Origin: Patescibacteria group bacterium
GTDB lineage: Bacteria > Patescibacteriota > Patescibacteriia > UBA2591 > UBA4787
DNA length: 64,000 nucleotides
Reading direction: 5' to 3'
NCBI GenBank assembly: GCA_028715115.1
Contig: JAQUSN010000001.1
Location: 3,314-67,313 of the forward strand
Positions 6,824-41,668 of this stretch are shown here, piece after piece. The notes beneath the pieces were generated by a model. It searched no databases. It was not told the origin of the DNA and saw only the letters and a list, made by a program, of their open reading frames with translations. Position 1 is the stretch's first letter; every line of letters starts with the position of its first letter. A program made the position numbers and the translations under genes.

Positions 6824-6929
6824 AGATGTTAGTTATTTTAACAAAATTTAATAAAAAATCAAGCCCAGTTAGAACAACTTTACTAATGCCTTAGCCCCGC
6901 TAAGCGGGGCGTAAAGTTTAAGGGTAAGT

Positions 6930-35276: not shown

Positions 35277-35332
35277 TGGAGCCGAGGGTGAGGATCGAAC
35301 TCACGACCTATGGTTTACGATACCGTTGCCCC
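35277..35332 (-). pseudogene. 3' remnant of a tRNA-Thr-like gene (D-stem 3' side through CCA, anticodon CGU)
   Basis: rc = GGGGCAACGGTATCGTAAACCATAGGTCGTGAGTTCGATCCTCACCCTCGGCTCCA. Its acceptor 3' strand CCTCGGC matches the isolated 5' fragment GCCGAGGTAGCTC at 35625-35637. Confidence 0.5.
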
Positions 35333-35347
35333 GCCTGCCATCGCCCT

Positions 35348-35420
35348 AGCCCGCGGTCGGAATCGAACCGACAACCTACGGTTTACGATACCGTTGCTCT
35401 ACCAGTTGAGCTACACGGGC
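35348..35420 (-). tRNA. tRNA-Thr (anticodon CGU)
   Basis: rc = GCCCGTGTAGCTCAACTGGTAGAGCAACGGTATCGTAAACCGTAGGTTGTCGGTTCGATTCCGACCGCGGGCT. 7-bp acceptor, loop ATCGTAA. Flanked by GGCGATGGCAGGCGGGG (35329-35346) and CCTGCCCGCCATAG (35426-35439). Confidence 0.85.
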
Positions 35421-35444
35421 TCAGGCTATGGCGGGCAGGTCTAC

Positions 35445-35528
35445 CCTACTTCGAGCTTATTAATTAAGCTCGAACGGGCCGTCCAGTTTTTTTCAAAAAC
35501 TGGAATAGGCCAATTGAGCTATCTGGGC
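35445..35528. repeat. conserved double-hairpin repeat (TTCGAGCTTA-N-TAAGCTCGAA, CGGGCCGT, CCAGTTTTT-N3-AAAAACTGG, AATAGG) fused to a 19-nt tRNA 5' fragment (GCCCAGATAGCTCAATTGG on the minus strand)
   Basis: About 80% identical to 41280-41358. The hairpin core is also at 40671-40690. Confidence 0.7.
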
Positions 35529-35624
35529 AAAAGTGGCGGGGCAAGGCTGCCCCGACGTTTTAGTCGGTCCGATGACTCCGACGAGTATCGGACTCCGTCG
35601 GAGGACTCCGACTGTAACGTCGGA

Positions 35625-35637
35625 GAGCTACCTCGGC
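35625..35637 (-). pseudogene. isolated tRNA 5' fragment GCCGAGGTAGCTC (identical to nt 1-13 of tRNA-Thr(UGU) at 40605-40617, plus 2 nt of its upstream flank)
   Basis: rc of gagctacctcggc. Followed on the minus strand by hairpin-rich sequence homologous to 40690-40760. Confidence 0.5.
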
Positions 35638-35820
35638 ATTAACACTCAGTCAGCCTATTAATATAATACACTAGGCTGAAAATTTTTCAATTGGAGCGGG
35701 TAACGGCCTGCCTGCCCTGACTGCCGTCAGGCGGGCGGTAGGCAGGGAATTGAATCTTTACTTGGGAAGTCCTAAAAGTTTTTGCAATCCGCCAAATTGC
35801 GGAGAAGTAGTGAATTTTTG

Positions 35821-39409: not shown

Positions 39410-39805
39410 GTATTTGATGGTTTTGCCTACCTGCCGCAGGAGACTAGTGCTCTGCTTCACCCCACCTAAACAAGCCGGGCAAATTTAACTACGCCCCCAG
39501 GCTGGTAGTACACTGTTTATTTAGTTTCCTTGTGAACAATATGCTTTCGGCAAGAACGGCAATATTTTTTCAATTGCAAACGCTCTTTGACGTTTTTTTT
39601 ATTTTTCGTGGAAAAATAATTAAGCCGATGGCATCCCGTACATTCTAATTTTATCAAATTTTCTTGACTCATAGAAAAATGGTTATGTATTAATAATATT
39701 TTCTAAAACTAAACCGTCCCCCTTAATTAAAGTAAAGCTCCGGAAAAATCATCTCGAGATTACTCGCTCGACCACCTCTCTTGAATTTTAGGACAAGTAA
39801 TATTC

Positions 39806-40617: not shown

Positions 40618-40639
40618 ATAGTCAGCTCAGACTAAGGCG

Positions 40640-40760
40640 GACGGGCAGAGCCACTACCGCCCAGTTTTAAGAAAAACTGGAATAGGCTGTTGTCCCGACG
40701 TTTCAGTAGAAAAGTCGGGTCTCCGACCGAAAGCGTCGGAGAGCTAGGGCGGCATGCTCG
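40640..40760. repeat. copy B of the tRNA-associated repeat: hairpin CCAGTTTTAAGAAAAACTGG, hairpin-rich CCCGACG/GTCGGAG segment, and a tRNA-like 5' fragment GCCGCCCTAGCTC
   Basis: Homologous to 35483-35637 (shared CCCGACGTTT, GTCGGAGAGCTA, GGCAT). Degenerate CCTGCCCG-CCGCC motif directly upstream of the tRNA. Confidence 0.55.
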
Positions 40761-40931: not shown

Positions 40932-41004
40932 AGCCCGAGGTCGGATTTGAACCGACGACCTACTCCTTACCATGGAGTTGCTCTACCAGCTGAGCTACCC
41001 GGGC
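40932..41004 (-). tRNA. tRNA-Thr (anticodon GGU)
   Basis: rc = GCCCGGGTAGCTCAGCTGGTAGAGCAACTCCATGGTAAGGAGTAGGTCGTCGGTTCAAATCCGACCTCGGGCT. Confidence 0.85.
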
Positions 41005-41256
41005 ATGTTGTAAATATTGTTTTAAAATTTTCTGCTTTAATTTGGCGCTATATAAACTTTTAAAGTATTTTTCTTGTTCCATCGCTTCAACTCGTGTATC
41101 AAATGATTCTTGATGAATAACAATAAACGGCCTTCTATTTTTTGTCGATATTACCTGCCCACTATTATGTTTTTTAACTCTCGCCACTAGGTCATCAGTT
41201 TGCCCAACATATAATTTTTTATCTTTCAGGCTATATAAGATATAAACAAAATACAT
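40960..41256 (-). CDS. GIY-YIG domain endonuclease (small, URI-type). The 3' end of the ORF runs into the tRNA-Thr(GGU) gene.
   Basis: FVYILYSLKDKKLYVGQTDDLVARVKKHN...E matches GIY / YIG / R / H-N / E spacing. The last roughly 15 codons are tRNA sequence. Confidence 0.65.
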   Translation of the reverse strand: MYFVYILYSLKDKKLYVGQTDDLVARVKKHNSGQVISTKNRRPFIVIHQESFDTRVEAMEQEKYFKSLYSAKLKQKILKQYLQHARVAQLVEQLHGKE

Positions 41257-41279
41257 ATTTTGCTACTTGCTTTACCCTA

Positions 41280-41358
41280 ATTCGAGCTTATTAGATAAGC
41301 TCGAACGGGCCGTCCAGTTTTAAGAAAAACTGGAATAGGCCAGCTGAGCTACCCGGGC
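41280..41358. repeat. copy C of the tRNA-associated repeat plus an exact 19-nt duplicate of the tRNA-Thr(GGU) 5' end (GCCCGGGTAGCTCAGCTGG, with 2 nt of upstream flank)
   Basis: ttcgagcttattagataagctcgaacgggccgtccagttttaagaaaaactggaataggccagctgagctacccgggc. Confidence 0.7.
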
Positions 41359-41401
41359 ATAAAAACATGATTAAAAATTATAGCAGATATTCGTTAAAAA
41401 A

Positions 41402-41668
41402 TCAAGAGGTTTTCTTAGAAAAAACTTTCTTACAAAAAGCAGCAAATTTTGAACAACCGACTCTTGTATCCTTAAAAAATTTTTGCCACCAAGCTGCCCA
41501 CTCGCGCATAAACCTTTGCTGCATTAAATTCTTTTTAATTTCCGCTTGTAGTTCTGATCTGGTATCTAGCGGGATAGAGGCAACTAAAGGCAGTTTTTTG
41601 AAAATTATTGCCCAAATAATAATTAGCGCTCCAACTAAAATTATTAATAATAGAATATTGAAAATCAT
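41402..41668 (-). CDS. small membrane protein (N-terminal TM, basic C-terminus), co-directional with tpiA
   Basis: 88 aa. The overlapping antisense ORF 41367-41672 is judged spurious. Confidence 0.45.
   Translation of the reverse strand: MIFNILLLIILVGALIIIWAIIFKKLPLVASIPLDTRSELQAEIKKNLMQQRFMREWAAWWQKFFKDTRVGCSKFAAFCKKVFSKKTS

Follow-up and report, generated by a model that had tools for sequence, protein, structure and literature searches.

How can a tRNA gene be interrupted near its 5' end and at the same time be kept complete? The question is raised by the tRNA-Thr(GGU) gene on the minus strand of a 64,000-nt stretch of DNA from a Patescibacteria group bacterium (GenBank assembly GCA_028715115.1, contig JAQUSN010000001.1, positions 3,314 to 67,313; the whole stretch is called the window here). 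The gene is interrupted by a 354-bp insert that holds only a double-hairpin element (DHE) and an 84-codon gene for a GIY-YIG nuclease domain. The tRNA remains intact because its nt 1-26 are present in duplicate. What is directly observed is an insertion within a tRNA gene, accompanied by a 5' duplication that matches the target, and related open reading frames (ORFs) are strongly associated, and co-oriented, with genes for tRNA and transfer-messenger RNA (tmRNA). We consider it probable that the insert is a selfish mini-element with a nuclease as its only product, to be classed with free-standing homing genes or mobile ORFs, and that it is spread by its nuclease together with host repair.

Read along the minus strand, the locus runs from a promoter-like site through a stub of the tRNA (nt 1-19), the DHE with its two hairpins (hp1 and hp2), the heptamer TAAAGCA and a leader to the ORF and the complete tRNA-Thr(GGU). 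A preliminary description had listed stub, double hairpin, GIY-YIG ORF and complete tRNA in this order, and all of them are present:

41377..41405, minus strand: sigma-70-like promoter TTGATT-17-TGcTATAAT, 10/12 match, extended -10
41340..41360, minus strand: direct repeat copy 1, two flank nt plus tRNA-Thr(GGU) nt 1-19, exact 21-nt duplicate
41358-41340, minus strand: stub GCCCGGGTAGCTCAGCTGG, equal to tRNA nt 1-19, starting 18 nt past the promoter at native spacing
41275..41339, minus strand: DHE of 65 nt between tRNA G19 and U20, made of CCTATT, hp1 (41333-41314), ACGGCCCG (41313-41306), hp2 (41305-41281) and TTAGGG
41268..41274, minus strand: TAAAGCA, remnant of native tRNA nt 20-26 (TAGAGCA), one mismatch
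41257..41267, minus strand: 11-nt leader, which with the ATG forms a weak inverted repeat to the QYL codons at the ORF end
40960..41256, minus strand: GIY-YIG ORF of 98 codons, Slx1/UPF0213 branch
40986..41006, minus strand: direct repeat copy 2, AT plus tRNA nt 1-19, exact 21-nt duplicate
40932..41004, minus strand: complete tRNA-Thr(GGU) (ARAGORN; Rfam 67.5 bits), 100% identical to the tRNA of the diverged relative L093

The 21-mer ATGCCCGGGTAGCTCAGCTGG, which comprises the two flank nt and tRNA nt 1-19, occurs exactly twice (41360-41340 and 41006-40986), with zero matches in 100 shuffles; the identity of the first 19 nt of the tRNA with the upstream fragment, as first described, is thus exact. 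That fragment had been taken to end at nt 19. It actually covers nt 1-26: TAAAGCA past the DHE corresponds to nt 20-26, which places a clean DHE insertion at 19/20 and the ORF module at 26/27; the duplication extends over nt 1-26 and 1-2 nt of flank. In relatives the equivalent of TAAAGCA is intact and target-specific, reading TAGAGCA (L093, Thr), TAGAGCG (L173, Phe) and TAGGACA (L121, Gln). The idea that the upstream fragment is the displaced original 5' piece agrees with its position at the native promoter, a motif also conserved 5' of tRNA-Thr(GGU) in three relatives (L091, L092, L093). This promoter serves the tRNA locus and presumably the whole insert.

The ORF has no stop codon of its own. 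As had been noted, it reads through into the tRNA, overlapping it by 45 nt and stopping at tRNA nt 43-45. The catalytic domain occupies codons 1-82, the complete tRNA starts two nt after the 84-codon gene, and the final 15 codons and the stop come from tRNA sequence. Complementarity between leader and QYL codons amounts to 12/13 in L173 and ~9/12 in the window. The only other ORF of at least 30 aa that overlaps the insert (40947-41063, plus strand, 38 aa) runs antisense across the tRNA, and the GIY-YIG ORF is the only protein-family match between the repeats, with no tyrosine or serine recombinase. Around the element, Rfam (gathering threshold and E up to 10) returned tRNAs only and no intron, ribozyme or other family. 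A group I intron was rejected, as no Rfam intron match appeared even at E up to 10 and the sites, 19/20 and 26/27, are not in the anticodon loop. An assembly artefact was ruled out because the arrangement recurs in the NCBI metagenome-assembled genome GCA_028686935.1, in three Logan contigs and in L093. The exact 98-aa ORF sequence was not on record in a protein look-up, and the locus was recovered through TpiA.

What does the ORF encode? The proposed search against PF01541 gave 61.3 bits over a cut-off of 22.6 (E=1.1e-16, profile positions 1-76 of 78). Across 15 relatives, the catalytic residues Y16, G18, R26, H30 and E62 are invariant and Y5 nearly so, and they align to those of 1YWL, 1ZG2 and SLX1. 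A profile of these 15 sequences matched the solved structures 1YWL (E=2.5e-13) and 1ZG2 (E=2.4e-11) and, weakly, SLX1 (E=0.004). The relatives are 80-90 aa long and consist of the GIY-YIG domain only, with no separate DNA-binding domain. Judged by sequence, the protein belongs to the Slx1/UPF0213 (YhbQ/YazA) branch and comprises the catalytic domain alone. The preliminary description had instead pointed to homing and seg-type GIY-YIG enzymes. Membership of the I-TevI/Seg type was rejected on size (84 aa against ~200-270 aa), on the lack of a DNA-binding domain, on a TIGR01453 (group I intron endonuclease) score of 22.9 bits, below its cut-off of 56, and on best matches to UPF0213. Seg-type enzymes have a separate DNA-binding region, and the protein here has none. 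In a published classification, 1YWL and 1ZG2 are assigned to the Slx1 lineage, with the homing-endonuclease/UvrC lineage as its paralogue (PMC1564403), and YhbQ and YazA are listed as Slx1 family members (PMC7017083).

Comparison of the ORF with its L093 orthologue gave dN/dS=0.044 at saturated synonymous sites (pS=0.72), indicating strong purifying selection, and the nuclease gene appears to be functional. The phage collection yielded weak matches only (<60% identity), in unannotated Listeria and Staphylococcus records, and the PADLOC defence-system search gave marginal matches only.

Is the insert present or absent at the same site in relatives? Orthologous loci L091, L092 and L093 were found via TpiA and neighbouring genes. 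Their TpiA identities to the window are 63%, 65% and 58% (L093: 63%), placing the three at about equal distance; the closest TpiA relative, P0016 (83% identity), was not among the loci compared. L092 has the empty site that the preliminary description had proposed to look for: tRNA-Thr(GGU) comes directly after the shared promoter motif, and tRNA-Tyr is next. L093 is filled and shows the arrangement of the window, with an ORF 78% identical as against 63% for TpiA. In L091, the same D-loop has been invaded differently, the order being old nt 1-16, a complete new tRNA-Thr(GGU) and old nt 20 onward (L091 6090-6266), and the inserted tRNA cassette is bounded by 13-15-nt inverted repeats CCCCGCCACC.../...GGTGGCGGGG.

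The stub of L093 is identical to that of the window (19/19), the DHE motifs and the hp1 stem are unchanged, and hp2 differs by two compensatory double substitutions. With synonymous sites saturated, this identity means that stub and DHE are constrained or homogenised and are no decaying scar. Diverged fragment copies combined with a lack of presence/absence variation had initially been named as evidence against insertion. The copies are identical in L093 too, and the empty site of L092 supplies the variation. A history without mobility, in which the tRNA 5' region was duplicated locally in tandem and then decayed and the ORF was an old resident gene, would account for the same arrangement in two deeply diverged genomes. 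It is very improbable in view of the empty L092 site, the same architecture in a tRNA-Phe gene with a 75%-identical ORF (L173), and recurrence across at least 12 tRNA species and tmRNA.

How far does the association with tRNA genes extend? Scans of GTDB genomes and metagenomes of the Joint Genome Institute (JGI) gave 160 loci with 166 non-redundant related ORFs. For at least 126 of the 166, a gene for tRNA (50) or tmRNA (76) is found no more than 350 nt away and without exception on the same strand, compared to an expected proximity of 2% from far flanks of the same loci (binomial P ~1e-174). Rfam detected a tmRNA gene in 18 of 20 loci for which ARAGORN had reported none, which makes 126 a lower bound; on 20 related loci it detected tmRNA and tRNA genes only. 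The hosts are mostly Patescibacteria, with some Zixibacteria, Ignavibacteria, Margulisbacteria, Saganbacteria and Bacteroidota, and the targets span the at least 12 tRNA species plus tmRNA mentioned above.

Extra exact pieces (at least 11 nt) of the adjacent tRNA accompany 35 of the 50 tRNA-linked ORFs. Where the tRNA lies downstream, the piece is nt 1-18/19, or nt 1-26 plus 44-58; where it lies upstream, the piece is nt 52/55/57-73. The partial copies usually run from a helix junction (19/20, 26/27, 43/44, 52-58) to the nearer gene end, with breakpoints clustering at 18-19, 25-28, 43-46 and 52-58. The suggested mirror image of classical 3'-end integration holds for the 5' geometry of the window and not for the family as a whole, which also includes 3'-end versions such as tRNA-Asn with nt 52-73 repeated. 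In several lineages the anticodon arm of the stub is swapped for a short GC hairpin (e.g., CCCCGCCTCGGCGGGG, CCCATCTGGG), with nt 1-26 and 44-58 kept. Copies with such a replaced arm were seen in L036, L039, L065, L075, L079, L157 and L161, which come from unrelated phyla and involve different tRNAs.

Stop codons are borrowed from the tRNA by many other ORFs too: U8-A9-G10 is read as TAG in L093 (2249-2270) and L173 (508-523), GGTTAG in the D-loop serves in tRNA-Glu and tRNA-Met, and GGTAAG in tRNA-Gln. The window ORF continues to tRNA nt 43-45 because its frame differs from that of the L093/L173 type. ORFs that end on tRNA bases include those of L063, L070, L075 and L086, and of L030.

The tRNA-Phe(GAA) locus L173 provides a close parallel to the window, with a 75%-identical ORF and the order promoter, Phe nt 1-18, DHE, Phe nt 20-26, leader, ORF and complete tRNA-Phe. 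Together with the empty L092 site, it upholds the original proposal of an insertion inside a tRNA gene whose duplicated 5' segment keeps one tRNA intact. The further proposal that the element carries its own replacement copy of tRNA nt 1-19 is not borne out. The repeats match each target (Thr, Phe, Gln), so they look derived from the target or homogenised with it rather than carried along. Direct repeats are identical within the window, L093 and L173, and diverged in Val-type loci only. ORF pairs at 80-90% identity share the same target in 65 of 65 cases, and the fraction differing in target is 20% at 60-70% identity and 87% at 50-60%. ORF modules 98.9% identical to one another adjoin tRNA-Val(GAC) in one genome and tRNA-Val(UAC) in others. 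These comparisons show retargeting between tRNAs.

The geometry, a direct repeat from inside a tRNA to its end, equals that of tRNA attachment (att) sites, and the 21-nt repeat might accordingly be read as the att core of a tyrosine or serine integrase element decayed to 354 bp. However, no integrase or remnant was found in any of the ~50 tRNA-linked loci, the insert content is equally compact in Thr, Phe and Gln loci, and the ORF is intact and under selection. We regard this origin as extremely unlikely.

Immediately 3' of the tmRNA gene there is often another GIY-YIG ORF, a distant one with 33-52% identity to the first. The tmRNA is thus bracketed by two GIY-YIG genes in L001 (3843-4109) and at least seven others (e.g., L010, L014, L021, L038, L040, L054, L069); in L011 and L048, the second ORF lies upstream instead.

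What, then, is the role of the hairpins? As DNA, the window DHE folds into two hairpins with the stub at -23.5 kcal/mol (z=-4.95), and its conserved CCC and GGG form the base of hp2. The window holds two full copies (41339-41275 and 35509-35444) and one partial copy (40686-40661). A total of 85 distinct units share a common motif order, with the consensus GG|C(C)TAWW, hp1, (A/T)CG(G)CCCG, hp2, TTAGGG; they comprise 79 hp1 and 78 hp2 sequences, and the median stem length is 9 bp. At stem positions, 1579 pairs are Watson-Crick, 6 are G-T, 2 are A-C and 14 are other. Such near-perfect palindromes with hardly any wobble suggest a structure at the level of DNA rather than RNA. In the D-loops of tRNA genes, DHEs follow GG; they also follow the first G-run of tRNA or tmRNA genes, can be arranged in tandem, and occur within tmRNA genes (L021 3059-3104, L022 3086-3156, L040 3116-3164 and L046 3060-3115, all found by Rfam and missed by ARAGORN). 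They occur on both sides of the ORF in L001, L018 and L069, and in L003, L026, L094, L096-L102 and L174 the ORF lies inside hp2, bounded by ~15-19-nt inverted repeats. In tRNA-Gln loci, an unrelated double hairpin (CCCCGCC..GGCGGGG, TCCCGC..GCGGGA) occupies the same 19/20 site.

A palindromic unit CCTCGGCCGTAGCC...GGCTACGGGCGAGG was observed between nt 12 and 13 of tRNA-Gln/tRNA-Glu stubs (upstream of the ORF in L043 and L037, and in L086), and these stubs also have a double hairpin at 19/20.

In an alternative explanation, the ORF is a mere passenger and the hairpin-bounded modules (DHEs, tRNA cassettes) are the mobile agents, moved by an enzyme encoded elsewhere or by replication and repair errors at palindromes. 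ORF-less DHEs and cassettes do exist (window 35509-35444, L091, DHEs inside tmRNA genes), the 98.9%-identical ORF modules stand beside different cargo tRNAs, Val(GAC) and Val(UAC), and the stems are nearly perfect Watson-Crick palindromes (1579 pairs against 6 G-T). On the other hand, the sole protein gene consistently found in the elements is the GIY-YIG gene, which is under purifying selection and either has DHEs on both sides (L001, L018, L069) or is located within hp2 (L003, L026, L174). In addition, two unrelated double-hairpin sequences occur at the same 19/20 site beside related ORFs. A passenger role is quite unlikely in our judgement.

For the selfish mini-element, we propose that the nuclease would nick or cut the DNA of tRNA or tmRNA genes, with the target probably recognized by shape (extruded cloverleaf, hairpin junctions, as by Slx1) and not by a long sequence. 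Host repair would copy the ORF module in with the duplicated segment, and one tRNA would stay functional. Transcription of the ORF would probably occur by read-through from the tRNA promoter, with RNase P releasing the tRNA. Hairpin elements may later accumulate in the dispensable stub, where they would split the direct repeat into stretches of at most 26 nt (21 + 7 nt here). With its repeat split in this way, the ORF should be protected from deletion by homologous recombination.

The only hints of structure-selective cleavage are indirect, namely the helix-junction breakpoints and the near-perfect DHE palindromes. A bolder interpretation is possible, and we put it forward tentatively. Here, the 84-residue Slx1-type protein would be a structure-guided, transposase-like nuclease recognizing extruded cloverleaf or hairpin DNA and not a sequence, mobilising hairpin-bounded modules (DHEs, its own ORF, replacement tRNA cassettes) into helix junctions of tRNA and tmRNA genes and producing serial nested ('Russian-doll') tRNA replacement in the Candidate Phyla Radiation (CPR). 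If true, it would amount to a new mobile-element class and a first function for the widespread UPF0213/YhbQ family.

Several observations weigh against the selfish mini-element. The empty, filled and differently invaded sites all come from relatives at only 58-65% TpiA identity, and no recent, near-identical pair of filled and empty sites was found. Perfect conservation of the stub across a deep split fits better with a functional role or gene conversion than with a passive scar. Cleavage by the ORF product and its target are predicted only, the 84-aa domain has no obvious means of site recognition, and the intact tRNA beside the ORF would still hold any recognition site lying wholly within the tRNA. 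The window contains a single GIY-YIG ORF. Upstream of 71 tmRNA-linked ORFs, tmRNA 5' stubs of at least 9 nt are essentially absent, which limits the stub rule to tRNA-linked copies, and the conserved smpB-ORF-ssrA order of the 76 tmRNA-linked copies could equally reflect a host function.

Such a host function is the main rival. The protein would be a host-beneficial RNA enzyme acting on tRNA, tmRNA or their precursors (processing, quality control, defence) and adjoining its substrates for co-expression, with the tRNA fragments as by-products of recombination. The low dN/dS of 0.044 and an ORF more conserved than flanking housekeeping genes speak for it, as do the smpB-ORF-tmRNA order in at least 76 loci without stubs and the conservation of stub and DHE as if functional. 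COG4123 is now assigned as a tRNA m6A37 methyltransferase. The same Slx1/UPF0213 branch is also fused with TrmH (Gm18, tRNA D-loop) and linked with COG4123 (PMC1564403). A purely host-serving enzyme sits poorly with the patchy presence among equally distant relatives, with near relatives at different tRNAs whose repeats are target-matched, and with disrupted tRNA genes nested in one another. Neither are stop codons borrowed from the tRNA, or ORFs in hairpin loops bounded by 19-nt inverted repeats, expected of such an enzyme. Overall, we consider this explanation unlikely; it is compatible with the selfish reading, and both may hold.

Does the selfish mini-element resemble any known system? Its principle, an endonuclease ORF combined with a regenerated gene end, is already known from the mobile ORFs (mORFs) of fungal mitochondria (Allomyces atp6; Glomus atp6/atp9/cox2/nad3; PMC3630166). 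There, too, a free-standing endonuclease ORF, in some cases GIY-YIG, comes with a duplicated gene end that keeps the gene working, the native segment is displaced, and in some cases the ORF shares the reading frame of the host gene. The mORF hallmark, an endonuclease ORF between a complete gene and a displaced terminal segment, is found here and in 35 of 50 tRNA-linked loci, and a second mORF trait, presence or absence at orthologous sites, is seen among the distant relatives L091, L092 and L093. In contrast to mORFs, the target here is a tRNA gene, the 5' end is duplicated (the 3' end in some relatives), the nuclease is an 84-aa Slx1-type domain, the stub is split by a hairpin element, and the hosts are bacterial (CPR) and not organellar. 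The repeats are identical rather than diverged, and the inserted segment is thus not foreign.

T4 SegB is likewise encoded by a GIY-YIG gene that lies within a cluster of tRNA genes. A conserved tRNA motif (T-psi-C stem-loop) forms part of its cleavage site, and the enzyme drives the inheritance of neighbouring tRNA genes and their segmental amplification (PMC2330249; PMC13096335). However, SegB belongs to the I-TevI/Seg lineage, has a 27-bp site, is phage-borne, and leaves no tRNA stubs or hairpin elements. Group I introns in Patescibacteria tRNA genes share the phylum, the insertion inside tRNA genes and, in some cases, endonuclease genes; they are 184-894-nt ribozymes that lie in the anticodon loop and are spliced out (PMC13011429), whereas the insert here gives no ribozyme match, sits in the D-arm and is followed by a complete tRNA. 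Integrative elements targeted to tRNA or tmRNA genes also have a direct repeat equal to a terminal tRNA segment and regenerate the gene. They differ from the present insert, which has no recombinase, spans 354 bp only, represents the unusual 5'-end version and comes with several hairpin modules at helix junctions. Repetitive extragenic palindromic sequences and their associated transposases (REP/RAYT, REPtrons) and miniature inverted-repeat transposable elements (MITEs) may resemble it in their many short palindromic units, which also flank or contain a small nuclease gene and of which ORF-less versions outnumber the others. Compared to REP/RAYT, the nuclease here is GIY-YIG and not HUH/Y1, and the units follow GG in the D-loops of tRNA genes or sit at the 5' G-runs of genes for tRNA and tmRNA, not in generic intergenic DNA.

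The best sequence matches remain the UPF0213 proteins (E. coli YhbQ, B. subtilis YazA; PDB 1YWL, 1ZG2), with agreement in length and conserved residues. We know of no established function for bacterial UPF0213 members and of no report that they are mobile or linked to genes for tRNA or tmRNA. In eukaryotes, Slx1 selects branched and stem-loop DNA for cleavage by its structure and requires Slx4; no partner was seen here. Among the papers searched in full text, we found none that describes an association of GIY-YIG/UPF0213 genes with tRNA or tmRNA genes in CPR. The features that appear to be new are the branch of the nuclease, tRNA and tmRNA genes as its targets, the geometry at the 5' end, the hairpin elements, and the nested replacement of tRNAs.

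The findings tie a very common family of unknown function (UPF0213/YhbQ/YazA) to a concrete target, tRNA and tmRNA genes. At ~350 bp and with a nuclease domain only, the insert would be among the smallest autonomous selfish elements, and it raises the question of how a protein with no DNA-binding domain attains target fidelity. Annotation is affected by tRNA stubs, by tRNA-like pieces with a replaced anticodon arm and by ORFs running into tRNAs, and ARAGORN misses some tmRNA genes because hairpin elements sit inside them.

In reduced CPR genomes, tRNA genes appear to undergo turnover in which they are invaded and replaced, and two further loci of the window show nested disruption and replacement. 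One is the scarred leader of tRNA-Thr(UGU); in the other, the current tRNA-Thr(CGU) lies within remains of older tRNA-Thr genes:

40636..40755, minus strand: scarred leader of tRNA-Thr(UGU), with AT plus the 13-nt stub GCCGCCCTAGCTC (40753-40741), a TCCGACG-type hairpin unit (40740-40687), and a partial DHE (40686-40661) with diverged tail
35277..35637, minus strand: nested tRNA-Thr(CGU) locus
35637-35529, minus strand: its 5' part, with stub nt 1-13 (35637-35625), TCCGACG-type hairpins and CTTGCCCCGCCACTTTT (35545-35529)
35528-35444 and beyond, minus strand: its middle, with a second stub nt 1-19 (35528-35510), a DHE at 19/20 (35509-35444) and TAGA (nt 20-23)
35420-35348, minus strand: current tRNA-Thr(CGU) gene, flanked by inverted repeats CCTGCCCGCCATAGCCT / AGGGCGATGGCAGG
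35329-35277, minus strand: old 3' part ending in CCA; the first stub pairs with its acceptor strand

Hairpin units of this other type (TCCGACG...CGTCGGAG; minus strand, 35546-35624 and 40687-40740) begin right after nt 13 of the stubs ATGCCGAGGTAGCTC and ATGCCGCCCTAGCTC. Similar repeats of the CTCCGAC type were also seen upstream of the ORFs in L068, L076 and L084. In L174, L102 and L003, a tRNA-Val flanked by inverted repeats lies in the anticodon loop of an old tRNA-Val.

Some smaller pieces may be further stubs. A possible stub GGGGGCGTAGTT (window 39487-39498, minus strand) lies ~80 nt upstream of tRNA-Trp and matches its 5' end at 11/12 positions; L093 has a 40-nt tRNA-Trp 5' stub at the corresponding position. 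Another candidate, CCCGCTCCA (window 35692-35700, minus strand), lies ~120 nt downstream of tRNA-Gly, matches its 3' end and is preceded by a long GC hairpin. An isolated hairpin CCCCGCTTAGCGGGG followed by CTAAGGCA (window 6893-6907, minus strand) resembles the GC hairpins and the D-arm piece GGTAAGGCA of tRNA-Gln-linked loci; no tRNA-Gln was found in the window. Perfect inverted repeats of at least 8 bp flank 7% of tRNAs compared to 0.4% in shuffles, a real enrichment that affects a minority of genes.

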